A stretch of 54,451 nt of DNA from Deltaproteobacteria bacterium (lineage in GTDB: Bacteria > Myxococcota > Myxococcia > Myxococcales > JAHFDP01), in NCBI GenBank assembly GCA_023248955.1, contig JAHFDP010000020.1, positions 1 through 54,451 on the forward strand. The letters are read 5' to 3'. Of the stretch, positions 12,122-54,451 are shown one piece after another; within the stretch, counting starts at the first letter, position 1; each line of letters opens with the position of its first letter. The notes under the pieces were generated by a model. It was not told the origin of the DNA and made no database searches. It saw only the letters and a list, made by a program, of their open reading frames with translations. The position numbers and the translations under genes are program-made.

Positions 12122-12178
12122 GGTCTCGTTTTAGCAGGGTGGTCGGACGGAAACGAGGGCTCCCGTTTCGTTGCAAGC

Positions 12179-12487
12179 ATGGTTAAGGTTGCCCAAATGG
12201 CCGACACAATCCTGACTGAGAATGAAATAGACGCCGCACTGCGCGGACTTTCCGGATGGACTCGCATGGGCACGCGGACGTTGCGCAAGCAGTTCGCGCT
12301 CGGTGGATTCAAGGCGGCGCTGGCGTTCGTCAACACGGTGGGCGAGTTGGCGGAGCGCGCCGATCACCATCCCAACATCTTGATCGAGTACAGTACGGTG
12401 ACCGTGATGCTCAGCACGCACGACACCAATGGCGTAACCGCGCGCGACGTGCGATTGGCACGGCAGATCGAAGCCGCCTCGCAGTGA
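12179..12487 (+). CDS. Pterin-4a-carbinolamine dehydratase (PCD/DCoH)
   Basis: 'LSGW......L...F....F..ALAFVNTVGELAERADHHPNILIEYSTVTVMLSTHD'. The alternative ATG at 12197 (MADTIL...) is the more likely true start. Confidence 0.75.
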   Translation: MVKVAQMADTILTENEIDAALRGLSGWTRMGTRTLRKQFALGGFKAALAFVNTVGELAERADHHPNILIEYSTVTVMLSTHDTNGVTARDVRLARQIEAASQ

Positions 12488-12849
12488 CCGCGGAGTTCCG
12501 AAAACAGGCGCGCGCTGCTGCCGCGAAACCGGATGAGGCGTTGCTCGCCGAGTGTGAACTTGAATGGCGCACGGGAACCGGTCCCGGTGGTCAAAATCGA
12601 AACAAAGTAGCGGCGACCGTCCGCCTGACGCACTTGCCGAGTGGCGTGGTTGTCACCGGGCAAGATCAACGTGGGCGGTCGCAGAACCTTGGACGCGCAA
12701 TGGAACGGTTGCGCGAACGACTTACGGCTCTGGGGCGCGAGCCGATTCCGAGGCGACCAACACGGCCGACCAGGTCCTCGAAGGAGCGGCGCATTGGCGA
12801 GAAGAAGCATGCCGCTGCGAAAAGGGCCGATCGCAAGCGCTTCGATTGA
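12484..12849 (+). CDS. arfB: Peptidyl-tRNA hydrolase ArfB (class-I release-factor GGQ domain)
   Basis: 'TGTGPGGQNRNKV...VRLTHLPSGVVVTGQDQRGRSQNLGRAMERL' followed by a basic C-terminal tail. GTG start overlaps the PCD stop (GTGA). Confidence 0.65.
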   Translation: MTAEFRKQARAAAAKPDEALLAECELEWRTGTGPGGQNRNKVAATVRLTHLPSGVVVTGQDQRGRSQNLGRAMERLRERLTALGREPIPRRPTRPTRSSKERRIGEKKHAAAKRADRKRFD

Positions 12850-12897
12850 TCGCGAGAGTCATGCACTAAAGTGCATTAAATGTTATCGATATATGTA

Positions 12898-15354: not shown

Positions 15355-15367
15355 CGTATTCGGTTCG

Positions 15368-16525
15368 CTATCGATTGTAATACGCGGCTAACGCGGCGGC
15401 TTGGACCGCCTGTACGGAAACGCCGCAGGCTCTAGAACGCGCGGCACAGTCTTCGAATTCGGGAAGCGCGTGCCAGGCCTCGCCCGCGTGGCTCCCAACC
15501 TTCACGCGAATCGTACCGTATTTCGTCTCGACGGCGACGAAGCTGCGCTCGAGTACTTCGCGTTCGACGCGCACCACGCGGACCCCGAGCGTTGTGGTCT
15601 CTTTGAGGAGCGTGCGAATCACCGCGTCGCGTGCCCCAAAAGAACAGAGCGCGGAAAGAACGTGACCGGGCCGGCCTTTTTTCATCAGCGCGGGCGTGAT
15701 CCAGGCATCGATTGCACCGTTCGCAAAAACCGCCTCTTGTGCGGACGCCAAAAGCTGCGGCGAGAGATCGTCGAAATTCGCTTCAACGATCAACGCGCCC
15801 TCTTGCTGTGACGAGGTGCGACCGATCACGGCGCGGACAAAGTTCGGAGCATCCGTCCATTCACGCGTACCGAGTCCATAGCCGATCCGATCCACGATCA
15901 GCTCAGGTTGTGCATCCACTTCCTCAAAGAGCGCGGCGAGCAACGCGGCGCCCGTGGGCGTGGTGCGTTCACCGGGACCGGACGGCCTCATGCGCCGGCC
16001 TTTCATCAGTTCGAGCGTGGCCGGCGCGGGAATAGGAATCTTGCCGTGCATCGAATCGGTAGTTCCACTTCCCGACGGCGGTGGCATGGCGAAGCGGCGC
16101 TGGACGCCGAGCGCATCGATCAGAATCGCTGCGCCCACCATGTCGACGATGGAATCGACTGCGCCGACTTCGTGGAAATGCACGTCGTCAACGGGCTTTC
16201 GATGAACGGTCGCTTCGGCGATCGCAAGACGTTCGAACGCTTGCAAAGCGAGGTGTCGCGCGCCGTTGGGAAGTGCCGCGTTTTCGAGCAGCGAGCGGAT
16301 GGAACTCCAGGCGCGCTCATGAGGTTGCGAACCTACCGGACGCACCTCCACGTGCGTGCCCGCGATGCCGGACCGGTAATCTGCTTTCACGCTCAGCGAA
16401 AAACCGAGCGAACCTAGCGCGGCCAAGCCGCTGTCGAGCGCTTCGCGTGGCGCTCCCAAATCAAGCAGCGCCGCGATGAGCATGTCACCAGCAATGCCTC
16501 CCACGGGATCGAGGAAAAGGATCAC
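15368..16525 (-). CDS. larC: Nickel-pincer cofactor biosynthesis protein LarC (DUF111)
   Basis: 'ILFLDPVGGIAGDMLIAALLDLGAP...HVEV......VDDVHFHEVGAVDSIVDMVGAA'. The GTG start was chosen just after the larB stop; the longest ORF (to 16669) overlaps larB. Confidence 0.7.
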   Translation of the reverse strand: MILFLDPVGGIAGDMLIAALLDLGAPREALDSGLAALGSLGFSLSVKADYRSGIAGTHVEVRPVGSQPHERAWSSIRSLLENAALPNGARHLALQAFERLAIAEATVHRKPVDDVHFHEVGAVDSIVDMVGAAILIDALGVQRRFAMPPPSGSGTTDSMHGKIPIPAPATLELMKGRRMRPSGPGERTTPTGAALLAALFEEVDAQPELIVDRIGYGLGTREWTDAPNFVRAVIGRTSSQQEGALIVEANFDDLSPQLLASAQEAVFANGAIDAWITPALMKKGRPGHVLSALCSFGARDAVIRTLLKETTTLGVRVVRVEREVLERSFVAVETKYGTIRVKVGSHAGEAWHALPEFEDCAARSRACGVSVQAVQAAALAAYYNR

Positions 16526-16532
16526 TTCAGTG

Positions 16533-17279
16533 TCACTTTCGGGCGATGAGTGCTGCGTAAAAGCCGGCGCCAAATCCGTTGTCGATGTTGACCACGGCGA
16601 CGTTCGACGCGCACGAATTGAGCATGCCAAGCAGTGCCGCGATGCCGCCGAACGACGCGCCGTAACCAACGCTCGTCGGAACCGCGATCACGGGCCGCGC
16701 CAAGAGTCCGCCAACAACTGTCGGTAACGCGCCCTCCATCCCCGCGCAAACCACGATCGCGGCGCATTCCGCCATCGCCTCGCGTTTTGCCAAGACTCGG
16801 TGCAGCCCAGCGACGCCGACATCGTAAATGCGTTTCACGTGCGCGCCGCAAAACTCCGCCGTGATCGCGGCCTCCTCCGCCACGGGAATGTCGCTGGTTC
16901 CCGCGCACACGATCCCCACGGGTCCGCGCATGGCTGGCGTTTTGCCGCGACGACGGACGAATATTTTGGCAATTGGTTCGTACCTTCCCTCGGGGCACGC
17001 CGCTTGGACGGGGCCGACGTTTGCAGCTTCGAGCCGCGTCACCAACACGCCTTGCCCAAGGCGAGAAAGCTCGGTCACGATTCCGGCCACTTGATCGGGC
17101 GTTTTTCCAGCCGCGTAAACGACTTCCGCCACGCCTTGCCGAATGGCGCGATGTCCGTCGACGGTGGCGTAGCCGAGATCGCGTGCGGGCAAAGCGGCGA
17201 TCGCGCGCGCGGCCGCGTCCACCGTGGTTTTGCCGCGGCGGACATTGGAGAGCAAAAGGCGCAACGCTTGTGCGTCCAT
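16533..17279 (-). CDS. larB: Pyridinium-3,5-biscarboxylic acid mononucleotide synthase LarB (PurE-like)
   Basis: 'LGYATVDGHRAIRQGVAEVVYAAGKT', 'VGIVCAGTSDIPVAEEA', 'VVCAGMEGALPTVVGGL...PVIAVPTSVGYG'. Confidence 0.75.
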   Translation of the reverse strand: MDAQALRLLLSNVRRGKTTVDAAARAIAALPARDLGYATVDGHRAIRQGVAEVVYAAGKTPDQVAGIVTELSRLGQGVLVTRLEAANVGPVQAACPEGRYEPIAKIFVRRRGKTPAMRGPVGIVCAGTSDIPVAEEAAITAEFCGAHVKRIYDVGVAGLHRVLAKREAMAECAAIVVCAGMEGALPTVVGGLLARPVIAVPTSVGYGASFGGIAALLGMLNSCASNVAVVNIDNGFGAGFYAALIARK

Positions 17280-17310
17280 CAGGCACGCACCATAACAAAG
17301 GACTTCACTT

Positions 17311-17826
17311 TTAGAGCGGCCGGCCGGTCACGGTGTACGAAATGGAGCACGGCATTTGGCAGCCACAGCCACCGTCGGAGTTGTTGAAACTGGCGTCGAA
17401 TCCATCCGCCAAGATGCCAGAGAGCGCGACGAACGGCGCATCGGGAATTCCGCCATCGCGATCGCGCGCGCGTTCGAGATCAGCGGAGAGGCGCTCGCTA
17501 ATGTCAACGAGACAGGTACAGCCGGGCACACCCGGAAACTTGGGGACGGCGCTGGTGACTTCGAGATGATCGCTGGTGAGCGTTGCGGCGCGCGGCTTCT
17601 GGCCTTGCAGCGTAAAAAAAACGTTTTGTTTATTGTCGAGAGAAAGTGTGGCCGTGGTGTCGGCGATGCCACCGCCACCGGCAATGAAGGCGCCGTCCGC
17701 CATATCGCAAGCGTTGCCACCGTCACGTGGATCGAAGTGAAGTGAAAAAGCGCCGAGCGCGGTTCCCGGAAACGCGGTCTGCGCGCAGGCAGCGGTGGAA
17801 AGCAGCAACACGGCGAGGGAGCGCAC
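17311..17826 (-). CDS. Secreted hypothetical protein with paired cysteines
   Basis: Signal peptide MRSLAVLLLSTAACAQT. Cys-containing motifs 'GVPGCTCLVD' and 'GGCGCQMPCS'. Confidence 0.45.
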   Translation of the reverse strand: MRSLAVLLLSTAACAQTAFPGTALGAFSLHFDPRDGGNACDMADGAFIAGGGGIADTTATLSLDNKQNVFFTLQGQKPRAATLTSDHLEVTSAVPKFPGVPGCTCLVDISERLSADLERARDRDGGIPDAPFVALSGILADGFDASFNNSDGGCGCQMPCSISYTVTGRPL

Positions 17827-17895
17827 ACTTCGAAATTACCACGCGCGTGTTCTCGCCGGTTGACGTCTGGGTGTCGCTGTCCGAAGCTGCCGCGC

Positions 17896-18066
17896 ATGGA
17901 ATCGCTGGTTGGCTTCGGCTGGAAAATCATCGCGGTGTTGGCGCTCTTCACGATCGTGTTCGGACTGCGTCGCGCGGGCAGTGGCGCCGAGCTCAATGTC
18001 GGTGCGCGCAGTCGCGAACGGCGACGCGAACGGCGCCAGGCCCGACGCGCCAGCCAGCAAACTTAA
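17896..18066 (+). CDS. Small single-TM membrane protein (weak TatA/E-like pattern)
   Basis: 'MESLVGFGWKIIAVLALFTIVFGLRRAGSGAELNVG' is a TM helix plus an FG hinge, followed by an Arg-rich tail. Weak. Confidence 0.25.
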   Translation: MESLVGFGWKIIAVLALFTIVFGLRRAGSGAELNVGARSRERRRERRQARRASQQT

Positions 18067-18777
18067 ATGGCCTACGACGAAGTTCTTCTCGAACGTCGCG
18101 CACAGATCGCTCGCGCGGCGCGCGTAAGCGAAAAGGACGCCACGCCGTCGATTCGCAACCTCGCGCAAACGCTGACCAGCGGCCGCGCTGCGGTTGTGGT
18201 GCCGGTGCTCAACGCTGCCTTTTCACTCTGGGGCGCGACCGAAAGTTGGGACGCGGAATCCGTGGCGAAAGTGACGGCGGAATTCGACGACGCCGAAGCA
18301 CCGGCGCAGGCTTTGTGCATTGGTGATCGCCACGACTTGTTGGCGCAAGCTTCGCGTGCAGCGGGATCGTTGCCGCTCTTGCGTGCCGATTTGTTGCTCG
18401 AGGAGCACGAAGTTTTTGCATCGCGTGCGCTAGGTGCCGATGGTGTTTTGTTTCTCGCTTCGGCGCTTGGCGCGCAGCTTTCTCGTTGTGTTCGAGCCGC
18501 GCGTGCCACGCACATGTTGCCGGTGGTGCTCGTCACATCACCGGAAGAGTGCAGTGCGGCACAGTCCGCCGGAGCGGGCGCGGTAGCCTTCGATCTTCGC
18601 GCGGACGTCGCCTCGCTCTTTCCGCTGATTCCCGCGCGTGCGCTTGGAGTTGGATTGCTGTTTGGCGAAAGCAGCCGCGCTGAACTTGCGCGCTACGAGG
18701 GAAAACTCGACGCCGTGCTGGCCGTCGCCGGTGCAGTCGATCCGGTCGCGGCATGGCGGCGCTTAGCCGAGGGTTAA
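18067..18777 (+). CDS. Indole-3-glycerol-phosphate synthase (TrpC)-like TIM-barrel protein, catalytic residues not conserved
   Basis: By-eye alignment to IGPS: 'PLLRADLLLEEHEVFASRALGADGVLFLASAL' against '[32 protein letters not shown]', and 'LPVVLVTSPEE' against 'GVLTEVSNEEE'. The catalytic Lys, Glu and Asn positions are substituted. Confidence 0.5.
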   Translation: MAYDEVLLERRAQIARAARVSEKDATPSIRNLAQTLTSGRAAVVVPVLNAAFSLWGATESWDAESVAKVTAEFDDAEAPAQALCIGDRHDLLAQASRAAGSLPLLRADLLLEEHEVFASRALGADGVLFLASALGAQLSRCVRAARATHMLPVVLVTSPEECSAAQSAGAGAVAFDLRADVASLFPLIPARALGVGLLFGESSRAELARYEGKLDAVLAVAGAVDPVAAWRRLAEG

Positions 18778-18784
18778 ACTAAAG

Positions 18785-19108
18785 ATGCCGCGATTCACAC
18801 GTCACGTTTTCATTTGCACCAACGAACGCGATCCCGACAATCCAAAGGGATGTTGCGCGGCAAAAGGTGGTCGCGAGGTGCAAGCGCGTTTGAAGGAGCT
18901 CGTTCACGATCGTGGGCTCAAAGGAAAAGTGCGCGCCAACGCCGCGGGGTGCCTCGATGCGTGCGAGCACGGCGTGGCCGTTGTCGTTTATCCGGAACAG
19001 GTCTGGTACGGCGGCGTGACGCCGGCGGATGTGGCGGAGATCGTGGAGTCGCATCTCGAGGGCGGACGGCCCGTCGAACGGCTGCGCATCAAAAATTATC
19101 CGCGGTAA
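18785..19108 (+). CDS. Thioredoxin-like [2Fe-2S] ferredoxin
   Basis: 'RHVFICTNERD...GCCAAKGG' and 'AAGCLDACEHGVAVVVYPEQVWYGGVTPADV', the four-Cys pattern of NuoE-like 2Fe-2S ferredoxins. Confidence 0.75.
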   Translation: MPRFTRHVFICTNERDPDNPKGCCAAKGGREVQARLKELVHDRGLKGKVRANAAGCLDACEHGVAVVVYPEQVWYGGVTPADVAEIVESHLEGGRPVERLRIKNYPR

Positions 19109-19109
19109 T

Positions 19110-19290
19110 GGTTAGAGCGGTTTTCATTTGCGTCGATCCGCTGCAACGCACGATCGCCGGTCGAAAACGACGGGCTCGTCGCTGCGCTGCTCGACGCACC
19201 AGAAGTGCGCCTGCGCTGCTCGCTCCTCTCGCGCCGTTTTCGCCTCGGCGCTCGCGTGTTTCGCCAGGCTCAACGCAAATGAAAACCGCT
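19110..19290. repeat. 181-bp element bounded by a perfect 22-bp inverted repeat (TTAGAGCGGTTTTCATTTGCGT ... ACGCAAATGAAAACCGCTCTAA)
   Basis: Read directly from the sequence. It fills the convergent gap between the ferredoxin stop (19106-19108) and the hslO stop (19291-19293). Confidence 0.7.
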
Positions 19291-20196
19291 CTAAGCATCG
19301 CCGCCGCGTTCCAGGTCGGCGCGATCGATGGCATCGAGAATCGCGCGAAGTTCCGGCTCTTCCACGGCATACGATTCGCTGCAGAAATCGCAGGTCACAT
19401 CCGCGCGGTGATCGCGAATGATCATGTCGGCCACTTCCGCGGGCCCCAGCGTTGAGATGGCGCGCACCACGCCTTCTCGCGAGCAGCGACAAGCAAAACG
19501 AACCTCTTCGGTGGCGCGCAGTTCGAACGGCACGTCGCCGAGCACGTCGGTGATGAGTTCCTGCGCGCCCTTGGCCACGCGCATCGCGGACGCGAGATAA
19601 CCGTCGCGCAATTTTTGTTGCAAGCGATCGAGTAGTTCCAAATCACCGCCGGGCAATGCTTGCAATAAGATGCCCGCCACTGCGGTGAGCGGCTCGTCTT
19701 CCCAGGCGAGGACCTCGAGTGCCAGCGCGGAATAAGTTTGCTCGCTGGCGCGGAAATAGCGCTCCACACCTTGATCCAGCGCGCCATCGCCGAGATCGAC
19801 CACGCCGCGAAAAATTTTCCCCGGCCCCTGCTCACGCAAAACTGAAATGTAACCAGCACCACCGAGCGCCGGCCGAGTGGAGAAGCGGCCGTCCGGGTTG
19901 TAGAGCGGAAAATTGACGACGCGCGAGCGCACGAGGCCGCGCACATTCCCGTGCGTGTCCGCATCGACGAGCAGTCCGCGCGCGGGGCCGTCGCATTCGA
20001 CTTGAATGTTGACGCGGCCATCGGTTGGTTGAAGGGCGCCGAGCAGAAGTCCAGCGGTGAGGCCCTCGGCAAGCAGCCCCGCCGATGTTGGAGCAAGCTG
20101 GTGGCGGTCGCGCGCTGTGCGGGCAGCGGCCGTGGAAATGACGCCCAGGCACGAGAGACCGCCCGGAGCGACACCTTTCACGAGGTGATCGCGCAT
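19291..20196 (-). CDS. hslO: Redox-regulated chaperone Hsp33
   Basis: Hsp33 core plus C-terminal zinc switch 'CRCSRE...CDFCSESY'. Confidence 0.85.
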   Translation of the reverse strand: MRDHLVKGVAPGGLSCLGVISTAAARTARDRHQLAPTSAGLLAEGLTAGLLLGALQPTDGRVNIQVECDGPARGLLVDADTHGNVRGLVRSRVVNFPLYNPDGRFSTRPALGGAGYISVLREQGPGKIFRGVVDLGDGALDQGVERYFRASEQTYSALALEVLAWEDEPLTAVAGILLQALPGGDLELLDRLQQKLRDGYLASAMRVAKGAQELITDVLGDVPFELRATEEVRFACRCSREGVVRAISTLGPAEVADMIIRDHRADVTCDFCSESYAVEEPELRAILDAIDRADLERGGDA

Positions 20197-20236
20197 GCCA
20201 CAACGGTAACACGCGCGCGGCGAATTTCCTCGGGTG

Positions 20237-21136
20237 CTATTTTTTCGATTCGGAAATTTGCAGAAACGGCAACGCGCCGCCGCCGTTGTAATGCGGAAGC
20301 GCCCCGTCCCACTTGTCGATCGCTTTGCTCTGAATGAGCAGCGCGTTCAGCGTGACTTGCAAAAGTCGGTTGGCCTCCGACTGCGCCTTGGCTTTCACCA
20401 ACGTCGAATCCGCATCGCCTTGCGCTTCGGCCACTTTGGCTTTGGCGAGCGTGGTCTGCTTTTGCAATTCATATTCGGCCTGCAGCGCCTGCTGTTGCGC
20501 GGCCATTTTTTGTTGGAGCTGCGCTTCGATCGCCGCCGGAAGATGGCTCGCGCCCAAGTTCACTTTGTCGAGATGAAATCCCATTTTCTCGATGTCTTCG
20601 ATGAGCTGCTTGCGGACCGCGCCCTGCAAATCGCCGCGCCGGTCGGAGATGATGTCGGTGAGCGACATTTGCCCCGCTGCGTTCTGCGCCGCGGTAATGA
20701 TGGTGCGACGAATGAACGTGCCTTCGATCTCCTCAATGTCCGCGCCGCGAAAAGATTTGAAGACCTCTTCTGCGTGCTCGACGCTGGTGTTGTAGGTGAC
20801 CGAAATATCCTGGCGAATGTGCTGCCCTTCGCGTGTCGGCAAGTCGATGCTGTCGTCGCTTGTGGACGATCCTTCGCCCGAGCGCTTCACCATCGAGTAG
20901 GTGCGTAGCGCGATCGGATAGGACTGCACCGAGGTGACGAACGGAAGGCGCCACACGATGCCTTGCGGTTCGGCGCGCAGACTTCCGGTCCACATGTTGA
21001 AGATGACGCCGACGTTGCCGGGATTGACGACGGTGAAGGAGCTGAGCACCAGCGCGACGACGAAAATGGCGACGATGACGCTGACCATCCAACCGACTGC
21101 TTGCGGAATTACGTTGCGTGCATCGCCAATCGCCAT
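20237..21136 (-). CDS. SPFH/Band-7 (prohibitin/HflK-C-like) membrane protein
   Basis: N-terminal TM helix, SPFH core 'VTYNTSVEHAEEVFKSF', coiled-coil 'AIEAQLQQKMAAQQQALQAEYELQKQTTLAKAKVAEAQGDA'. Confidence 0.85.
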   Translation of the reverse strand: MAIGDARNVIPQAVGWMVSVIVAIFVVALVLSSFTVVNPGNVGVIFNMWTGSLRAEPQGIVWRLPFVTSVQSYPIALRTYSMVKRSGEGSSTSDDSIDLPTREGQHIRQDISVTYNTSVEHAEEVFKSFRGADIEEIEGTFIRRTIITAAQNAAGQMSLTDIISDRRGDLQGAVRKQLIEDIEKMGFHLDKVNLGASHLPAAIEAQLQQKMAAQQQALQAEYELQKQTTLAKAKVAEAQGDADSTLVKAKAQSEANRLLQVTLNALLIQSKAIDKWDGALPHYNGGGALPFLQISESKK

Positions 21137-40716: not shown

Positions 40717-41145
40717 ATGGTCGATGCAGGAAAGCAGGCGCCCGATTTCTCGCTGATGGGCGATGACGGTAAGCCCTTCAGCCTCAAGGACGTGCGCGGT
40801 CAGCAGGTCATCCTCTGGTTTTACCCGATGGCCGACACCCCTGGTTGAACGAAGGAGGCTTGCGCCTTCCGCGACGTGCTCGCGGACATTCACAACAAGA
40901 CAGCAATTGTGGTCGGTGTTTCCCCGGACGCTGCGGCGGAGCAGCAGGCGTTTCGCGTGAAGTACAATTTGAATTTTCCGCTCCTGTGCGACATCGAGCG
41001 GAAGGTGGGGACGCTCTACGGCAATTACGACGGGGCGAAGTATTGGCGCAGTACGTTTCTGATTGGGGCTGATGGAATCGTGAAAAAAGTTTGGCCCAAG
41101 GTGAAAGTCGAAGGACACGCTAGCGAAGTCCTTGCCGCGCTCTAG
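40717..41145 (+). CDS. Bcp-type peroxiredoxin with in-frame UGA at the peroxidatic-Cys position (candidate selenoprotein; TGA 40846-40848)
   Basis: 'KQAPDFSL....GKPFSLKDVRGQQVILWFYPMADTPG[TGA]TKEACAFRD' is the Prx 'PxDxTPGC-T-x-E-AC' active site, with TGA where the Cys codon would be. The same frame continues to TAG 41143. GGAAGGAG SD before ATG 40717. Hairpin GAAGGAGGC-ttgc-GCCTTCC begins 4 nt after the TGA. Confidence 0.6.
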
Positions 41146-47473: not shown

Positions 47474-47566
47474 GGAGAGGTGGCCGAGAGGCCGAAGGCG
47501 CTGGTTTGCTAAACCAGTATAGGGCCAAAAGCTCTATCGTGGGTTCGAATCCCACCCTCTCCGCCA
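47474..47566 (+). tRNA. tRNA-Ser (anticodon GCU), long variable arm
   Basis: GGAGAGG acceptor stem, anticodon loop tTGCTAa, long extra arm, TTCGAATCC T-loop, 3' CCA encoded. Confidence 0.85.
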
Positions 47567-47575
47567 GTACAAAAC

Positions 47576-47652
47576 GGACCTTTAGCTCAGTTGGATAGAG
47601 CGTCGGACTACGAATCCGAAGGCCGCAGGTTCGAATCCTGCAAGGTCCGCCA
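47576..47652 (+). tRNA. tRNA-Arg (anticodon ACG)
   Basis: GGACCTT acceptor, D-arm AGCTCAGTTGGATAGAGC, anticodon loop CTACGAA, GGTTCGAATCC T-arm, CCA. Confidence 0.9.
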
Positions 47653-47699
47653 TTTCAATCCCCGACAACGATTGCCGATTTCCGAGGGCACTGTTCGCC

Positions 47700-47905
47700 A
47701 ACTGGACGGGGATCCCAGTCGTCGGTGACACAGCGGTGCTATGGCGCGCAAGTTTGCCGGTGGCCGGAAGCGTGTTGACGGCTGCGCGAAGGTCCTCCAC
47801 GTCGAGGTGCCCGTAGGTCGACGTGGTGGTGCGCATGTCCGCGTGACGAAGGATTCGCTGGACGTAGTGGGGATTGGTTCCGTTGCGCTGATAGACGCTC
47901 GCCAT
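47700..47905 (-). pseudogene. Tyrosine-integrase C-terminal remnant
   Basis: 'VYQRNGTNPHYVQRILRHADMRTTTSTYGHLDVEDLRAAV' carries the R..H..Y catalytic tail only. A TAG stop and the Xis gene lie immediately upstream. The rest of the ORF is antisense tRNA read-through. Confidence 0.6.
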
Positions 47906-47911
47906 GTCGAC

Positions 47912-48142
47912 CTATCTTACCACTGCGGAAAGTGGCGCCAGGCTTGGCTGCCATTCGCCACGAACATAGGCGCGGATGGCGGCGGGCTCGAAGCGCAGCA
48001 TCGCGCCGACCTTGAAGCAGGGAAGAATTCCGGCCTCGGCGCGCTGGTAGACCCAAGAGCGCGAGCAGTTGAGAAAAGCAGCGACCGCGGCAACGGTCCA
48101 AAGCGTTTCATCGGACTGCGGGACAGACGGAATGACGCTCAT
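47912..48142 (-). CDS. AlpA/excisionase-type helix-turn-helix protein
   Basis: 'WTVAAVAAFLNCSRSWVYQRAEAGILPCFKVGAMLRFEPAAIRAYV' fits the Xis/AlpA pattern (LT..E.A..L.VS..T.Y.....G.LP..K.G...RF...). Confidence 0.6.
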   Translation of the reverse strand: MSVIPSVPQSDETLWTVAAVAAFLNCSRSWVYQRAEAGILPCFKVGAMLRFEPAAIRAYVRGEWQPSLAPLSAVVR

Positions 48143-49341
48143 GCAAGCCTCCGGAGGCCCTTGCGGGCGAGTAGATCGACGAAAAACGTGCGCTCTGTTT
48201 CAGAGGGATAGGCGGGAACTGGGAGTCCCCTTTCGCGAGCGTCCGCGCGAATGTCTTTCAACCTGTCGTAGATGCCGGCGGAGAATTTCAGAGCGCGAAT
48301 GGCCTCATCGTCGGTGAGAAAACCGGTCCGTTCTTGCACGACGACAGGTGTGCTCGCGGGTTTGGCCACCGCATTTCGGAGGCCAAGGAAGCCGGAAAAA
48401 ATCGCTGGTGCTTCCTCGAACGTCATCGCGTGAGCACGGAGATCGAACCGCGACGAAAACTCGCTCGCCTGCCCGTCTTCCTTGCGCCACTCTTCGATGG
48501 TGCGCCGCACCGAATCCCGGCGTGCCGCCGTGGGAACGGTGAAGACAAGTTCGCCCGGAAAGCCATCGGGAAACGCCTGCTGATAGAAGGTCGTTCGCGT
48601 CGACCCGTCCGCGTAGCTTCTGTAGAATTCCGAGTAGCGACGCAATTTCGAAAGCGTCGAGCCAGATTTTTCGTCGGCGTTTGAAAGCGAGTGACCGCCC
48701 ATTTCGCACTCGATGAACCAGCGTCGGCGGACAGGCGCGCTCTCCAAAATGGCATCGGGTTCGATGCGCTTGTTCTGAACGGCGCCAAGTTTGCGGTCGT
48801 ATTGTTTCCACGGAAGACGAGACGACTCTGACGTCGTCCAACGAAAAGATTGGTGCACGGGCGCCGCATCGGTTTTTCCATCGCCGCCGCGCGCCGCAGT
48901 TGCCAGCGCGACGTACAAATCGCTCAGCGCGATCGCATGCTCGAGCAGTTGGTACCCAACATCGTCGGACGGAATTTTCACGTCGCGCCCGAGGACCCGG
49001 GAGGCCGCTTCGTATCCCATCTCCGCCAACCGCCAGACCGCGAGGGGCGTGCCGTAATAGGTGCGATATTTCAGGGCCGCCACGAACGGTCCACGGGCGG
49101 GCGGCACCGACAAAACTTCGAGCCGCCGCCGGACTACGCGATCGGAACGGCATGGAAAGACGAGGCGGGCGATTTGGCTGGAGGTCAGGTAACGCGCCAC
49201 GGCGAGGTGCCCCAACAGGACCAGATCTCGTTTTGTAATTCTCGACGCCTTTTTCGCTCTCTCCTTTGACGCTTCTATCGCTTCACTCGGCGCCGCCCAC
49301 ACTTCTCCGTTGACCCTTGTTCCGTCCTCGTCCTTCGACAT
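48139..49341 (-). CDS. Replication-relaxation (Replic_Relax-like) family protein
   Basis: N-terminal winged-HTH 'LTSSQIARLVFP.RSDRVVRRRLEVL' typical of the family. Long purine-rich leader with AAGGAGGA SD. Confidence 0.5.
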   Translation of the reverse strand: MSKDEDGTRVNGEVWAAPSEAIEASKERAKKASRITKRDLVLLGHLAVARYLTSSQIARLVFPCRSDRVVRRRLEVLSVPPARGPFVAALKYRTYYGTPLAVWRLAEMGYEAASRVLGRDVKIPSDDVGYQLLEHAIALSDLYVALATAARGGDGKTDAAPVHQSFRWTTSESSRLPWKQYDRKLGAVQNKRIEPDAILESAPVRRRWFIECEMGGHSLSNADEKSGSTLSKLRRYSEFYRSYADGSTRTTFYQQAFPDGFPGELVFTVPTAARRDSVRRTIEEWRKEDGQASEFSSRFDLRAHAMTFEEAPAIFSGFLGLRNAVAKPASTPVVVQERTGFLTDDEAIRALKFSAGIYDRLKDIRADARERGLPVPAYPSETERTFFVDLLARKGLRRLA

Positions 49342-49594
49342 AGCCGCTCCTCCTTTCCGTCGGACTCCGCTCCAGCTAGTTCGCCTCGCCCCCTACGATT
49401 CGCCTCCGTCCTCGTTTTCTCGGCTCTTGCTCTTCCGTTCTTCTTGTCTCTTTCAACCCCACTGAAACCACATCATATAATTTTCATTTGTAATCTAATT
49501 CAATTCTACTTCAAGTCAATATTGAATCTTGAGCACTCCCGTCAACCACCTCCAACCAGGTCCCATCTCTTCAATCCAAACCCTGCCTTGGGAT

Positions 49595-49650
49595 CATTTA
49601 CCCCTGACCCCTCTCTCGTCGTTGGGAGAGAGGGGTCAGGGGTAAATGAG
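49595..49650. promoter_or_regulatory. Perfect palindrome with 20-bp arms (TTACCCCTGACCCCTCTCTC-n8-GAGAGAGGGGTCAGGGGTAA) in divergent AT-rich intergenic region
   Basis: Read directly from the sequence. Lies between the divergently oriented Replic_Relax and metalloprotease genes, next to a ~100-bp AT-rich stretch. Confidence 0.5.
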
Positions 49651-49989
49651 ACCGACGAAGTGCGCAGCGGCTACAGTCGACGAAGGACCTGGTTGCCAGC
49701 GGAGAGCGAGGTTTGCGCGCGGGAGATTGATCCGCCGAAGGCAATCGGACCTGTCCGGCCGCCTATTCCAGTGATCCGAAGAATCTAACGGATATGTAAA
49801 CGGATATTTGTAACGCTGACTTCGGATCACCCAGCGACAGCGTTGACGCTGGAAATTTTGGAATGGCGAACAACAAAACTCGGCGAGCTTATTCTTCTCG
49901 GCCTGTTTTCCTCGACGTACGAGATACGACAGTGGGTCCGTTTGAAACCACACCGACCATCCACCCTCGCCAAAAAGCAAGCGGCCGCC

Positions 49990-50150
49990 TGTGTTACCAC
50001 CCGCTTCAGTAAATGGGCCGGTCCTCCCTCGCTTTCCTTCTGCCTTTGGTATTCGCCGCCTCGAGAGCCGGCGAATCGCGAGCCGCGGCCCGCTTCGGTG
50101 AACACCCCGGCCAGCCAAAACGTGGCCGAGCGCCTCCGAGTGATCTACTG
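49990..50150. repeat. ~160-bp direct repeat (copy 1); copy 2 at 54297-54451
   Basis: About 90% identical. Covers the upstream region, start codon and signal-peptide coding region of two paralogous genes. Confidence 0.75.
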
Positions 50151-50993
50151 GTCCGAGATGATTTTGCGTATTCGGGTCGAGCCGAACATCGATTCCGGAC
50201 GAAGCCGATCACCAATTCCGACGCATTTTTGCTCCGAAGCAAATCGAGCGAAGGTAGCGAACTCCAGAAACCAATCCGCGTCATCCCGACGCGAGAGCGG
50301 CGCGAGAAGATAAAGCGGGGCTCCAACGCGCCTCCGCCGCCACCCAGCGGCGTCGCTGCCCGATCTACGGAGTGGGGCAAACCCGATCCCGCGAGGCTAT
50401 CGCTCACGCGGAAGATGGTTGCCGCCCGAGGAACCGCCGACCACAAGGACGCTGAGTTGGTGGCGCACGAGATCGCGCGATTTCCTGAACCGATCCTTCA
50501 ACGATTGGCCGCACAGGGAACGCGGGTAATTGCGGTCCGCGACTCGACCACTGAGTATCATACGCATTTACGCGGAGTTCGCCCTCGCGGATGGCCACCG
50601 GACGCTACCTGGGACTCGGTTCCCGGAACCGGGGACCAGCACGCCCTCGTCATTGCGACGAGGGGCCACGGAACCCCGGTCGGAGCACACACTCCCCATT
50701 TCGGAGATGGCCACGGAAGCTTCTCGATGCCTTTGCATGAGACGCTTCACTCGATCGATCGTGGGAACGGAAGCAAGTTTTCGCATGACGAAGGTTTCGC
50801 GGTGGCGAGGACTGCCGACCTAGCGGCTTTGGATTCGTATTTGCAGCAACCAGGAGCGGCCGGATTGGAGGAGACTTTTGCCGAGACTGGAGCACGCTTC
50901 TTTGCCGGCGATCCGACCCTCGAGCACGCGTGCCCCAACCTCTATCGGTTCTGGAAGGAAGATCCGCTTGGGCTGTGGCGAAACGCGAGATGA
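50013..50993 (+). CDS. Secreted HExxH zinc-metallopeptidase-like protein (effector/toxin-like)
   Basis: Signal peptide MGRSSLAFLLPLVFAASRA. 'HETLHSIDRG' (HExxH) with Glu/Asp downstream ('SKFSHDEGF'). Poly-Pro 'NAPPPPPSG'. Confidence 0.5.
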   Translation: MGRSSLAFLLPLVFAASRAGESRAAARFGEHPGQPKRGRAPPSDLLVRDDFAYSGRAEHRFRTKPITNSDAFLLRSKSSEGSELQKPIRVIPTRERREKIKRGSNAPPPPPSGVAARSTEWGKPDPARLSLTRKMVAARGTADHKDAELVAHEIARFPEPILQRLAAQGTRVIAVRDSTTEYHTHLRGVRPRGWPPDATWDSVPGTGDQHALVIATRGHGTPVGAHTPHFGDGHGSFSMPLHETLHSIDRGNGSKFSHDEGFAVARTADLAALDSYLQQPGAAGLEETFAETGARFFAGDPTLEHACPNLYRFWKEDPLGLWRNAR

Positions 50994-50994
50994 C

Positions 50995-51312
50995 ATGCGG
51001 AGAATAGTTGTCACAGTCGCTTTCGTCGGATCGCTTGGATGCAAGACGCCGATCGCGCACACTCCTCGCCCCCCATCAAAATCCGATTTGCCTGTGAACG
51101 AGAGGACCATGGAGAACATTGGAACCGCGACTATGGAAAGCGACGGGACCATTGTCCTTCGACTGCGCGCAGAGGATGGCAACGGAATGGTCGGCCAAGG
51201 CCGAATCACGTACCCGCCGACGCACAAATCCTATCAGGACGTGCTCCGCCATTTAGGCGGATTGAAAAAGGGAGAGGAAAAGCCCGTTCCTCCATGGCCC
51301 GATTTGCCATGA
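50995..51312 (+). CDS. Small lipoprotein (105 aa) abutting the metallopeptidase; possible cognate inhibitor/immunity protein
   Basis: 'MRRIVVTVAFVGSLGC' is an SPII lipobox. Its ATG lies 1 nt after the upstream TGA. Confidence 0.45.
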   Translation: MRRIVVTVAFVGSLGCKTPIAHTPRPPSKSDLPVNERTMENIGTATMESDGTIVLRLRAEDGNGMVGQGRITYPPTHKSYQDVLRHLGGLKKGEEKPVPPWPDLP

Positions 51313-51502
51313 GCCACCGGATTCGCCAGCCGAGAGGAGGTCGACCGGCACGTGTCCGCGACCTTCTCGGCCGGTTTCGCAGCGGGCACGCTCGTGAAGC
51401 CGGATGGCTCTCAGCTCCCATTTCCGCGTCCGATGGTCAGGACTTCGGCTGGCTCGGGTAGGTGCTGGCCTCATCGATGTTCGGCCTTCCGTCTCGATGC
51501 AA

Positions 51503-51790
51503 CTACGCTGGATCGAAATGCAGCTTCACGTTCACCGAATCTAAAACGGATAAGAACGTGTCCAGTCGCGGATTTCCATTCTTGGACAGCGCCTTGTAGA
51601 GGCTCTCCCGACCGCGCGCCGCGCGCTTGGCGACCTGCGCCACGCCCCTGGCCCGCGCGATGTCCCGCAGCGCCAAGAGCAATTCCGATTTGCCTTCCGC
51701 GAAGGCCGCGGTGAGGTACTCCGCGGCGAATTCCGGATCGCCAAGTCGTGCGTCGAGTCCCTCGGTGTACGCTTTGACTTTCCGTTTCAT
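51503..51790 (-). CDS. HigA/TIGR02684-type addiction-module antidote (HTH) protein
   Basis: 'DPEFAAEYLTAAFAEGKSELLLALRDIARARGVAQVAKRAARGRESLYKALSKNGNPRLDTFLSVLDSVNVKL'. Confidence 0.7.
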   Translation of the reverse strand: MKRKVKAYTEGLDARLGDPEFAAEYLTAAFAEGKSELLLALRDIARARGVAQVAKRAARGRESLYKALSKNGNPRLDTFLSVLDSVNVKLHFDPA

Positions 51791-52149
51791 CATTCGCTCC
51801 CTTGGTATTCGATCCAATATTCTTTCGCCCGCCTGATATCGGCCGCCTGGGATTTCTTGCTACCGCCAGCGAGTAGGACAACCAGCCGCTCTCCATCGTG
51901 CGCGAAATAGATCCGGTACCCAGGTCCGTGGTCTACCCGCAGTTCGTGAACGCCTCCGCCGACCGGCTTGGCATCGCCAAAATTTCCCGAACGAACCCGC
52001 AGAAGCCTTGCGTCGATGCGCGCTCGAGTCTTCGTGTCCTTCAACCCCATCAGCCAAGCGCGAAACGGGACCTTTCCGTTGGTGTCGACGAATTCGACAA
52101 GTTCTCGTTCGGTGATCACGTTCAAGTTGTATCCAAAAAGATACAACAC
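51790..52149 (-). CDS. RelE/ParE-superfamily (TIGR02683 'addiction module killer') toxin
   Basis: 'FRAWLMGLKDTKTRARIDARLLRVRSGNFGDAKPVGGGVHELRVDHGPGYRIYFAHDGERLVVLLAGGSKKSQ..DIRRAKE'. True start probably internal. Confidence 0.7.
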   Translation of the reverse strand: MLYLFGYNLNVITERELVEFVDTNGKVPFRAWLMGLKDTKTRARIDARLLRVRSGNFGDAKPVGGGVHELRVDHGPGYRIYFAHDGERLVVLLAGGSKKSQAADIRRAKEYWIEYQGSE

Positions 52150-52434
52150 GTCAAGCGTTTTGCTGTCTTGCTTTGGGGGCTATACGCGGTGCGTTTTTCA
52201 TCGGCAATGCTGCCGGAGTCGGCGAGAGCAACCCCGAATCGAATTCGACGCCCGCACGTGTTGTCAGCTCGCGTGTTCGCACGGTCCGTACACCGTCGCC
52301 GCCGGCACCCCAAGCCACGACGCCATGGTGAGCCTGTCGCGCGCGCGCCATTGATTGAGATGATCAAGACCAGGGGCGGCGGCTCGCTGGCTGCCGCACT
52401 GGCGATTGCGCCCACACTGCGGCATGATGTCGAC

Positions 52435-52713
52435 ATGACTCGTCCAAGCGTTGTCATCGCCTGGAACCGTCGCGCCAACGCCTACGTCGCTCGAATGACG
52501 ACGCGCGCCGGAGAGCTCGCACGTGGGGCGACGCTGTCGGAGACCGCTCGCAAGCTTGCCGAAGCTATCGACCCGGCGGTCCAGCTTGATGCGGTCTTTC
52601 GCAAGGTCGCGGCGTTCCAGAAGGCGCACAAGGTCAAGCCGCTCTCGATGAAGGAGATCGACGCGGAGATCAAGATTTACCGCGAAGAGCGCGCTCGGCG
52701 CCGCCGCGCGTGA
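52435..52713 (+). CDS. HicB-like (UPF0150 fold) antitoxin partner of the PIN toxin
   Basis: 'PSVVIAWNRRANAYVARMTTRAGELARGATLSETARKLAEAI'. Stop overlaps the vapC start. Alternative start at 52360. Confidence 0.45.
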   Translation: MTRPSVVIAWNRRANAYVARMTTRAGELARGATLSETARKLAEAIDPAVQLDAVFRKVAAFQKAHKVKPLSMKEIDAEIKIYREERARRRRA

Positions 52714-53129
52714 GGCTCGTTTTCGACACCAACGTTCTCGTGTCGGCGCTCATCACACCGAAGGGGACAGCGCGCCGATCAATCGACGCCGCTATCCACT
52801 CAACGGCCATCGTTCTCTACGATGAGCGAATTCTCCTCGAGTACGCGGAAGTCACGACCCGTGCGAAGTTTCGCGGAAAGTATCCGCCGAATGCACCGCG
52901 CGAACTCCTGCTCGCGTTGCTGGCACGAAGCGAGTCAGTTGTCGGATCGCCAAGCGACCTGGTATTGCCGGATCCAACGGACGCGCCGTTCCTGGAAGTT
53001 GCAATTGCTGGCCAGGCCGACGCAATCGTCACGGGAAACGCCAAGCATTATCCGGCCAGCTCGGGGGTTCCCATTTTCTCGCCGCAGGACCTCGTGCGGC
53101 GTCTGCACCAACAGCGTCCAGATCGCTGA
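52710..53129 (+). CDS. vapC: PIN-domain toxin (VapC-like)
   Basis: 'MRLVFDTNVLVSALI', acidic residues in 'YDERIL', and 'AIVTGNAKHY'. Confidence 0.8.
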   Translation: MRLVFDTNVLVSALITPKGTARRSIDAAIHSTAIVLYDERILLEYAEVTTRAKFRGKYPPNAPRELLLALLARSESVVGSPSDLVLPDPTDAPFLEVAIAGQADAIVTGNAKHYPASSGVPIFSPQDLVRRLHQQRPDR

Positions 53130-53144
53130 GTGACGGTTATTGGC

Positions 53145-53313
53145 TCACCTGCGCCGAACAAATTCCGACAGCGCACCCGGCTCAACCCGAATCGAATTCG
53201 ACACCCGCACGTGCTTGAGCTCACCTCGCTCGCACAGTCCGTACACCATCGCCGTCGACACCCCAATCCACGCCGCCACCTCGCGTACATTTAATAGACG
53301 CGAACCAAAATTC
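53145..53313 (-). CDS. Second AlpA-type HTH gene (short)
   Basis: Hand translation of the minus strand: 'REVAAWIGVSTAMVYGLCERGELKHVRVSNSIRVEPGALSEFVRRR*'. A degraded copy of the same ~100-bp segment lies at 52225-52325. Start uncertain. Confidence 0.4.
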
Positions 53314-53443
53314 GGTGACACAGCGGTGCTATGAAATATGAAAACCGGCGCTAACGGTCCACTGAATGTAATTTAGCGGAATCGGTTTCCGCAATACTTC
53401 CCATAGCTTGCGAAGCCTCGTCACTCGCTGCGAATCCATTTCC

Positions 53444-53515
53444 CAGACCTACGAATCCGAAGGCCGCAGGTTCGAATCCTGCAAGGTCCGCCATTTTAAT
53501 CCCCGACAACGATTG
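53444..53515 (+). repeat. Partial tRNA-Arg 3' half plus flank (attR-like direct repeat)
   Basis: 'CTACGAATCCGAAGGCCGCAGGTTCGAATCCTGCAAGGTCCGCCA' plus 'TTTtAATCCCCGACAACGATTGCCGA' duplicates 47608-47679. Confidence 0.75.
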
Positions 53516-54245
53516 CCGAGCGTAATTTCTCTACCATCCACGGCCAGCCCACGCCTTCGACAAGACGGTATGGAAAAGCATGTCCGATTCCGAGAATCTC
53601 TCGAAGTTCAACTTCGCTTTCCGGTTGACCAGCAACAAAGGCGCGAACGTGTTCGATGGGAAAGAGTCGATCGTCGATCCCGTGAACAAAAAGCGTTGGC
53701 ACGTGGGCTAGCCGAACGTTGCACCGCCATGGTGCGGCAGCGAATGCAACGATGCCAAGAATGCGCTTAGCAAGGGTGTCGCCCAATTCCCAGGCCGTGT
53801 TGGCTCCCGCCGAGAGACCGACGACAACGACCGGTTGTCCGACAAGGCGACCCATGGCTTGCTCTACGACCTCGTTTTTTGTCGCCTCGGTCCAAGTGGG
53901 GCTGACGAGGTGAATCGCGTGTGCTTGGAGAAGCTCATAGAAGACCGCGGCAAACCGGCGGCCAGTGTCCTGAGCGCCATGCAAAGCAAGCACCCCGACC
54001 TGCGCAACGCCCACCTTTGGCCGCAATCCCAGACCGTCCGCGCCGATCGGTTCAACCTCGTAGTGCGGCTCGAGCGCCGCGAGCAGCCGCAACGAAAGAC
54101 GTTCGTGCAAGTCCAAGAGGAGGTTGGGCGATGACTGTACTGGTTCCTGCAAGCCGAGATATTTGCAAAGGTCGCTGGCGTTCGGCGGCAGTGGTCCTCC
54201 GAGACCAAAGCGCTCCAGAATTGTCGCGGCATCGAGGATGTCCAT
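53496..54245 (-). CDS. Alpha/beta-hydrolase fold protein (esterase/lipase-like)
   Basis: Nucleophile elbow 'VVVGLSAGAN' and 'LFVHGIDDRLFP'. Start set at the MDILDA ATG. Confidence 0.65.
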   Translation of the reverse strand: MDILDAATILERFGLGGPLPPNASDLCKYLGLQEPVQSSPNLLLDLHERLSLRLLAALEPHYEVEPIGADGLGLRPKVGVAQVGVLALHGAQDTGRRFAAVFYELLQAHAIHLVSPTWTEATKNEVVEQAMGRLVGQPVVVVGLSAGANTAWELGDTLAKRILGIVAFAAAPWRCNVRLAHVPTLFVHGIDDRLFPIEHVRAFVAGQPESEVELREILGIGHAFPYRLVEGVGWPWMVEKLRSAIVVGD

Positions 54246-54330
54246 AGTCGGCGGGGCAGCGCGAAGGAGTATAGCCCGCGGATGCATCGATCGCGCCTGT
54301 GTTACCACCCCGCTTCAGTAAATGGGCCGG

Positions 54331-54451
54331 TCCTCCGTCGCATTCCTTCTGCCTTTGGTATTCGCCGCCTCGAGAGCCGGCGAATCGCGAGCCGCGGCCC
54401 GCTTCGGTGACCCCCCCGGCCAGCCAAAACGTAGACGAGCGCCTCCGAGCC
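54331..54451 (+). CDS. Paralog of the HExxH metallopeptidase-like gene, 3'-truncated by window end
   Basis: 'MGRSSVAFLLPLVFAASRAGESRAAARFGDPPGQPK...' is the same signal peptide as the 50013 gene, and lies within the direct repeat. Confidence 0.5.

Follow-up and report, generated by a model that had tools for sequence, protein, structure and literature searches.

Gene content and boundaries of the element

The stretch of DNA examined here, referred to as the window, comprises positions 1 to 54,451 of contig JAHFDP010000020.1 (assembly GCA_023248955.1), which is assigned to a Deltaproteobacteria bacterium. Towards its right end the gene for tRNA-Arg(ACG) is followed by an interval that contains the remnant of a tyrosine integrase, an excisionase-like gene, a relaxase gene with an inverted repeat upstream, the gene of a predicted secreted protease, two toxin-antitoxin (TA) pairs and a second excisionase-like gene, and that is closed by a second copy of the 3' part of the tRNA (Table 1). 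We consider it likely that this interval is the remnant of an integrative element belonging to a family of conjugative or mobilizable elements that carry MOB_C relaxases.

Table 1. Features of the tRNA-Arg(ACG) locus and its right flank, in window coordinates (HTH, helix-turn-helix; ORF, open reading frame)
Feature	Position	Strand	Remarks
tRNA-Ser(GCT)	47474-47566		just upstream of tRNA-Arg; ARAGORN, Rfam
tRNA-Arg(ACG)	47576-47652	+	integration target; ARAGORN; Rfam tRNA 74.9 bits
attL copy of 71-nt direct repeat	47608-47678		repeat search
Interval inside the repeats, likely element remnant	47653-53448		~5.8 kb
22-mer, copy 1	47722-47743		44 nt from attL repeat
Tyrosine-integrase remnant	47765-47905	-	last ~46 codons; tblastn, Pfam PF00589
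alpA1, excisionase-like HTH_17 gene	47912-48142	-	Pfam HTH_17 38.6 bits; TIGR01764 'excise' sub-threshold
MOB_C-type relaxase (Replic_Relax, PF13814)	48139-49341	-	intact, 400 aa
Inverted repeat	49595-49617, 49626-49648		perfect 23-nt arms, 8-nt loop; ~250 nt upstream of relaxase gene
158-nt repeat, copy A	49986-50140		27 nt upstream of and first 43 codons of protease gene (start, signal peptide)
PPEP-like (M34, ATLF-domain) zinc metallopeptidase, predicted secreted	50013-50993	+	Pfam ATLF 44.5 bits, cutoff 27.4
Small ORF abutting protease gene	50995-51312	+	105 aa; N-terminus MRRIVVTVAFVGSLGC looks like a lipoprotein signal as read from the sequence
RelE/ParE-family toxin and HigA-like antidote	51790-52149, 51503-51817	-	toxin first; TIGR02683 120 bits, TIGR02684 71 bits
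Decayed third alpA (alpA2-like) fragment	52231-52326	-	~95 nt; 88-96% DNA identity to 53184-53279; tblastn with alpA2 58% over 31 aa
Partner of PIN toxin	52360-52713	+	117 aa; upstream, overlapping toxin
PIN_3 toxin	52710-53129	+	Pfam PIN_3 77.8 bits; TIGR00305 above cutoff
alpA2, second excisionase-like HTH_17 gene	53145-53321	-	Pfam HTH_17 34.6 bits; adjoins attR
22-mer, copy 2	53312-53333		115 nt from attR; overlaps alpA2 start
attR copy of 71-nt direct repeat	53449-53519		repeat search
Flanking alpha/beta-hydrolase gene	53496-54287	-	ORF and gene calls; weak Hydrolase_4 and Abhydrolase matches; outside element
158-nt repeat, copy B	54294-54451		outside attR, between hydrolase gene and HTH gene; ends at window end

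A preliminary description of the DNA, made from the sequence by reading, had named tRNA-Arg(ACG) as the target of integration, and both ARAGORN and Rfam call this tRNA at 47576-47652. The direct repeat that bounds the interval is composed of 45 nt of the 3' end of tRNA-Arg and 26 nt of its flank. Its two copies agree in 70 of 71 positions, the sole mismatch being C at 47656 versus T at 53497. The existence of the repeat had been recognized correctly, although the right-hand copy had been placed at 53444-53515 and the flank given as 27 nt. At the attR copy neither ARAGORN nor Rfam calls a tRNA. The repeat has the form of an attL/attR pair, with the full tRNA at one end and its 3' part at the other.

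The 26 nt past the tRNA encode the final seven codons (SAIVVGD) and the stop codon of the hydrolase, whose gene converges on the tRNA. Both copies of the repeat read SAIVVGD-stop on the minus strand, and the mismatch falls on the middle base of the stop codon, which is TAA at attR and TGA in the attL copy. Because the frame of the hydrolase runs intact into the repeat, it is suggested that the hydrolase gene was the original neighbour of tRNA-Arg. The right-hand flanks of the two repeat copies are similar up to the end of the 71 nt and the similarity stops exactly there.

Next to the tRNA only the C-terminal end of a tyrosine integrase is found. In tblastn, positions 47765-47902 are 46% identical over 46 residues to the C-terminus of the full-length integrase of L100, a JGI metagenome contig described below (E ~1e-7), and the trimmed remnant matches Pfam Phage_integrase at positions 136-170 of 172 with E 0.0024, a score below the gathering threshold. 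The R-H...Y region is retained, whereas box I, the HxxR motif and the entire N-terminal part are missing. Thus, a truncated integrase beside the tRNA had been predicted rightly, with the qualification that the alignment supports ~46 codons instead of ~60. A complete tyrosine integrase (R...HxxR...Y) is not present in the window, nor were further integrase homologues detected there by tblastn with three integrase queries; the L100 integrase has no match either in the ~8.7 kb by which an ENA contig extends beyond the window.

The stop codon that had been noted in front of the remnant is the TAG of alpA1, which sits 6 nt upstream in the same frame. A single homologue of alpA1 was found in the protein collection (57% identity). 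It is followed after 48 nt by an ORF with an integrase-like N-terminus, MADPYEKNGRWYVRYKDG, for which a weak SAM-like match was obtained (E 0.0098, sub-threshold). The simplest reading is that alpA1 and the remnant are a former xis-int pair from which ~1 kb of int has been deleted. The junction from the relaxase gene through alpA1 and the integrase remnant to the tRNA is identical in the window, the ENA assembly and the Logan assembly and is for this reason not an assembly error. AlpA-like HTH genes had been proposed at both ends of the element, and Pfam assigns both to HTH_17 above the threshold of the model; the excisionase model TIGR01764 was matched only below its cutoff.

Paired 22-mers and a related element

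The 22-mer TCGGTGACACAGCGGTGCTATG is located near each end of the interval. These are its only two exact copies in the window, and none of 100 shuffled sequences contained such a match. An oligomer repeated near both ends had been reported as a 21-mer at 47720 and 53300; the repetition is real, with 22 nt beginning at 47722 and 53312. The main features of the locus are far beyond chance, and several coordinates of the preliminary description were a few bases off (4-12 nt).

Insight into the role of the 22-mers comes from L100, in which the 3' end of the integrase gene is followed by a tRNA 3' fragment, an alpA gene, a gene of the XRE type and a relaxase gene. The tRNA fragment stems from a different tRNA than that of the window and lies on the opposite strand, the alpA product is 62% identical to AlpA2 and the relaxase 61% identical to that of the window. 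This gene order is the one obtained when the window element is circularized across its repeat. When the junction reconstructed in this way was aligned with L100, the 22-mers came to lie opposite the motifs CTTGTCCCCACTGTGTCCCCG and TTTGTCGCCCCGGTGTCGCC. Since these similar motifs flank the L100 tRNA fragment on both sides, the 22-mers are probably arm-type sites, candidates for the binding of the integrase or of the AlpA-like excisionases. The att-type repeat, the integrase remnant and the circular-form order of L100 together support the earlier view that a decayed integrative island resides at tRNA-Arg.

The relaxase and its relatives in conjugative modules

The relaxase matches PF13814 with 55.2 bits (cutoff 25.3) over profile positions 1-181 of 191. 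It is full length, the D196/E211/E213/K232 motif is conserved, and an N-terminal winged HTH appears in the structure model. PF13814 is the MobC family of Conjscan, i.e. the MOB_C relaxases (PMC5357655). MOB_C relaxases, such as TraX of pAD1 and MobC of CloDF13, are related to PD-(D/E)XK nucleases and carry an N-terminal winged HTH (PMC6736028, PMC12857230). The gene had been described as belonging to the replication-relaxation family; this assignment to Replic_Relax holds and can be refined to a MOB_C relaxase from the backbone of a conjugative element.

Related loci, gathered through relaxase homologues and a metagenome scan, share a conserved module that consists of ParB, often together with ParA, a gap of a few hundred nt, the relaxase and a gene for a coupling protein of the VirD4/TraG type (T4CP). 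Relaxase and T4CP genes are adjacent in at least 15 loci. In most of them the start of the T4CP gene abuts or overlaps the relaxase stop codon, and in most ParB is encoded upstream. A 64-kb Myxococcus plasmid contains ParA, ParB, relaxase and T4CP-type genes in the order of the module, spaced more widely. In the window and the ~8.7 kb beyond it, tblastn with the T4CP and ParB proteins of the relatives revealed no gene for a ParB-like protein or a coupling protein. In the place of the T4CP gene the window has alpA1, the ATG of which overlaps the relaxase stop codon by 4 nt and thereby keeps the 4-nt overlap seen in the relatives. alpA1 begins with ATGAGCG like the coupling-protein gene of L093, an agreement too short to count as evidence. 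Of the ORFs between the att sites, all of which could be accounted for, none encodes the coupling protein or a part of the type IV secretion system (T4SS) by which an integrative and conjugative element (ICE) is recognized.

Decay of the module is not restricted to the window. The coupling-protein genes of L090 and L091 diverge ~23 codons into the reading frame, L092 is a further decayed copy with a truncated coupling-protein gene, and five contigs (L129-L133) keep the inverted repeat and only ~74 relaxase codons. L091, with an integrase gene, a ribbon-helix-helix gene, the inverted repeat and the relaxase gene, was considered as a model of an intact element and rejected, its T4CP gene being truncated and followed by the Mla transporter genes of the host. 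The L091 integrase does not align with the integrase remnant of the window. The metagenome assembly that yielded the ENA contig also contains a related ParB-relaxase-T4CP locus (L085, 1-7000). In front of it lie DUF1156 and DUF499/HEPN_Swt1 genes, which resemble a defence-type module on a conjugative element.

The inverted repeat upstream of the relaxase gene

Upstream of the relaxase gene the preliminary description had noted a promoter palindrome with arms of 20 bp. The palindrome is real, its arms measure 23 nt, and in place of a promoter role the comparison with relatives points to a repeat that characterizes the whole family. If mismatches are allowed, it extends to arms of 35 nt at 86%. 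It is kept upstream of the relaxase gene in ~30 related loci, and its pairing is conserved as such: in an alignment of 19 distinct sequences 96.5% of the cells are paired and 12 of 21 pairs show compensatory double changes. Values of this size were not reached in any of 500 shuffles, and the signal was lost when the partner was shifted by 1-3 columns. An outer inverted repeat of 10-19 nt encloses the inner one in 17 of 18 relatives, whereas the window lacks the distal arm. Since this arm is missing, the similarity of the window to the backbone of the family ends just beyond the inner repeat.

Known oriT regions carry inverted repeats. By analogy, the repeat at 49595-49648 is likely to be the core of a transfer origin (oriT) or a relaxase operator, where the relaxase would nick or bind the DNA, and we regard it as a candidate for either.

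Cargo genes

The claim of a metallopeptidase with an HExxH motif is confirmed by the ATLF match above cutoff and by structure matches to Pro-Pro endopeptidases (PPEPs) in the PDB, namely PPEP-2 (6fpc, E 1.6e-12) and PPEP-1/Zmp1. The motif reads HETLH and the catalytic domain covers approximately residues 130-315. H242, E243, H246, E287 and E291 are invariant in 14 homologues. The family comprises 756 cluster representatives at E<=1e-3 and is variable in its N-terminal regions. The N-terminus of the window protein, MGRSSLAFLLPLVFAASRA, resembles a signal peptide; the signal and the variable linker behind it were read by eye. The small ORF that abuts the protease gene belongs to no Pfam or NCBIfam family, and one gene caller assigns it 67 instead of 105 residues. 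It had been designated a lipoprotein, a label that is not confirmed and that derives from the appearance of its N-terminus.

The first TA pair fared as predicted. RelE/ParE toxin and HigA antidote match TIGR02683 and TIGR02684 above the cutoffs, as well as Pfam Gp49 and dnstrm_HI1420. Of the second pair, which had been read as HicB-like/PIN, the PIN toxin is corroborated by PIN_3 and TIGR00305, whereas the partner has no family match even at E<=10 and cannot be called HicB-like. Judged from the sequences, the two TA pairs are of standard kinds and would penalize loss of the segment.

Rearrangements and the right flank

Two observations point to rearrangements beyond the loss of int. The first is the alpA2-like fragment between the TA pairs. 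The second is the 158-nt repeat, whose two copies, one spanning the start of the protease gene inside the element and the other to the right of the hydrolase gene, are 94-96% identical with two small indels. As the longer ENA contig shows, the similarity does not continue past the position that corresponds to 54451.

The same contig shows what follows. In L003, positions 11805-20420 contain a run of minus-strand genes that encode an HTH protein of 134 residues and then proteins of 483, 209, 298, 778, 502 and 291 residues, with almost no Pfam matches and with paralogous pairs 778/502 and 298/291. The possibility that this cluster is a defence system was rejected, as there were no significant PADLOC matches. 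A related element integrated in tandem downstream was likewise rejected for now; a search of ~9.9 kb beyond attR revealed neither a third att copy nor a further 22-mer.

Interpretation

The features assembled above suggest the following history. A tyrosine integrase would have recombined the attP site of the element with the 3' end of tRNA-Arg(ACG). If attP contained the 71 nt of the repeat, made up of the tRNA 3' end and 26 nt of flank, recombination would yield the full tRNA at attL and the 3' fragment at attR, which corresponds to the repeat that is observed. Deletions then removed most of int, of which the last ~46 codons are left directly after alpA1. The T4CP gene is absent, and the conjugation genes were probably lost along with it. 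The relaxase gene is intact, and the inner inverted repeat, the two TA pairs and the operon of the protease gene and the lipoprotein-like ORF are still present. Because relatives decay in a similar way, and in view of the rearrangement seen in the alpA fragment and the 158-nt repeat, a deletion derivative of a conjugative element appears to be the most economical reading. It is also conceivable that the element was a small mobilizable one from the outset and lost its integrase afterwards.

Lacking an integrase, the element has no means of excising by itself and is most aptly viewed as a fossil that is either domesticated or in decay; its only current contributions are likely to come from the protease and the TA genes. 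To call it stranded goes one step further and is an inference, since an integrase might be supplied in trans.

Several observations weigh against the reading as an integrated and decayed element. Nothing proves that T4CP and T4SS genes were ever present in this copy. The repeat includes 26 nt outside the tRNA, among them the end of a host gene, which is unusual for an attP site, and the boundary is not clean, as a 158-nt segment of the island recurs just outside attR. In L100 the conserved inverted repeat is missing from the DNA in front of the relaxase gene (2140-2700), which makes this contig an imperfect model of the intact element. Composition, a check that the preliminary description had proposed, does not mark the interval as clearly foreign: its GC content is 0.599 compared with 0.616 +/- 0.012, and its tetranucleotide distance, at +2.4 standard deviations, falls within the range of the flank chunks; GC at third codon positions also deviates weakly, and none of these measures is diagnostic. 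Finally, no empty site was found. The closest metagenome homologues of HemW (64% and 58% identical) have no tRNA beside hemW and differ in synteny, a HemW scan of species-representative genomes returned relatives of at most 43% identity, mostly Chloroflexota, and exact look-ups of the HemW and hydrolase proteins retrieved the same two assemblies and no others. None of the contigs on which the flanking genes were found showed an empty site or a circular junction. The breaks of the Logan contigs fall within the 71-nt and 158-nt repeats, as is usual for repeats in assembly graphs, and are uninformative on alternative junctions.

The right-hand boundary could also be understood differently. The repeat copy at 53449-53519 would then be an internal junction of a larger composite island, the hydrolase gene and the downstream cluster would have been inserted earlier at this tRNA, and the actual right end would be located beyond the contig. 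The 158-nt repeat does tie the interior of the island to DNA outside attR, the downstream genes, which include paralogous pairs, fall into no Pfam or PADLOC family, and the alpA fragment indicates that more than one copy of an element contributed. Against such an island, the ~9.9 kb examined beyond attR contain neither another att copy nor another 22-mer, the flank similarity ends exactly with the 71-nt repeat, and the hydrolase frame continues into the repeat, as is expected of the original neighbour of the tRNA. We consider a composite island unlikely; it does not exclude that the interval between the repeats is a remnant of a MOB_C element.

The element might, alternatively, still be mobile as an integrative mobilizable element (IME) that receives its integrase in trans from a related resident element, uses its own relaxase and oriT and borrows a coupling protein and a T4SS. 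Its state of preservation agrees with this proposal, in that attL, attR and both 22-mers are essentially undamaged and both AlpA-like genes and the relaxase gene are intact. A possible helper is at hand in the same metagenome assembly, which contains a ParB-relaxase-T4CP locus whose relaxase is 61% identical, and small loci with integrase and relaxase but without T4SS exist (L091). Against mobilization in trans speaks that an integrase of this family was found neither in the window nor in the ~8.7 kb beyond, that integrases and arm sites tend to be narrowly specific and those related integrases that were observed have different tRNAs as targets, that the outer arm beside the inner repeat is missing, and that the contigs with the flanking genes include neither an empty site nor a circular junction. 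On balance, continued mobility seems quite doubtful. That the repeat is a partial duplication of the tRNA or a pseudogene unrelated to integration, with ordinary chromosomal genes in between, would agree with a composition close to that of the flanks but is very improbable given the integrase remnant, the excisionase-like genes at both ends, the paired 22-mers, the relaxase and the TA modules that lie between the copies and given L100, which repeats the layout of integrase, tRNA fragment and alpA with a different tRNA.

As the remnant of a MOB_C element, the locus is in itself an ordinary genomic fossil, and current understanding is not overturned. Through it, an uncultivated lineage that is probably myxobacterial becomes connected to a barely described family of conjugative elements with MOB_C relaxases, and it presents a PPEP-like secreted protease as cargo of a mobile element outside the Firmicutes. 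The most useful by-product is the candidate oriT of the MOB_C family, a strongly covarying repeat in ~30 loci. It is tempting to speculate that the relaxase and the inner repeat form a live, chromosomally fixed transfer origin at which, given the T4CP and the pore of a related conjugative element in the same cell, nicking at 49595-49648 could initiate Hfr-like transfer of the chromosomal DNA adjoining tRNA-Arg, an idea to which we assign little probability. If it were true, the recurrence of decayed copies in which the repeat and at least part of the relaxase gene survive (L090-L092, L129-L133) would reflect selection and not chance. The nested double inverted repeat would then also define, for the first time, how an oriT of MOB_C elements is built in Myxococcota-like bacteria.

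Other features of the window

Two observations concern regions distant from the element. A peroxiredoxin gene of the Bcp/AhpC-TSA type (40717-41145, plus strand) contains an in-frame TGA at 40846-40848 in the position of the peroxidatic cysteine (FYPMADTPG*TKEA). Gene callers split it into pieces of 43 and 89 residues; it probably encodes a selenocysteine peroxiredoxin. The TGA is followed by a small hairpin, the energy of which is no better than that of shuffled sequence. At the start of the contig (1-605), tandem coding repeats of 129-153 nt were read by eye as RCC1-like repeats of the ...VKCWG type.

Comparison with known systems

IMEs that encode a MOB_C/PF13814 relaxase form the class Rel_PF13814/MobC (Coluzzi et al. 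2017; PMC5357655). The element of the window resembles them in that it is small and integrated, that it combines a tyrosine-recombinase module and an excisionase-like gene with a single relaxase, a putative oriT beside the relaxase gene and cargo, and that genes of a mating pore are missing. It differs in that its integrase is cut to ~46 codons, so that the integration/excision module is non-functional, and in its host, a probable member of the Myxococcota and not a streptococcus. Moreover, the close relatives of its relaxase occur mostly in ParB-relaxase-T4CP modules, so that the window copy looks like a deletion derivative and not like a dedicated IME.

TraX of the Enterococcus faecalis plasmid pAD1 and MobC of CloDF13 are placed in the same Pfam family in the literature. 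The window relaxase appears to share with them the N-terminal winged HTH and conserved acidic residues; further points in common are a T4CP gene that in the relatives is adjacent and an inverted repeat in the adjoining non-coding DNA. The clade to which the window relaxase belongs has a nested double inverted repeat.

With tRNA islands and ICEs that have a tyrosine integrase and an AlpA/Xis protein the element shares insertion at the 3' end of a tRNA gene, which is regenerated, a repeat that corresponds to the tRNA 3' end, an integrase gene adjoining the tRNA, and an excisionase-like HTH_17 gene directly upstream of the integrase gene. It differs from these in a repeat of which 26 nt lie beyond the tRNA and reach into the end of a host gene, in its truncated integrase, and in the presence of a fragment of an AlpA-like gene besides two complete ones.

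The protease is comparable to PPEP-1/Zmp1 of Clostridioides difficile and PPEP-2 of Paenibacillus alvei, which belong to MEROPS family M34, the anthrax lethal factor-like peptidases. Approximately 170 residues align with E values from 1e-12 to 1e-9, and the HExxH motif, the downstream glutamates, the signal-like N-terminal sequence and the adjacent small gene for an envelope-protein-like product are held in common. In contrast to the PPEPs, no adjacent gene for an adhesin substrate was recognized; the window protease is ~30% similar to them and contains a non-conserved linker of ~100 residues.

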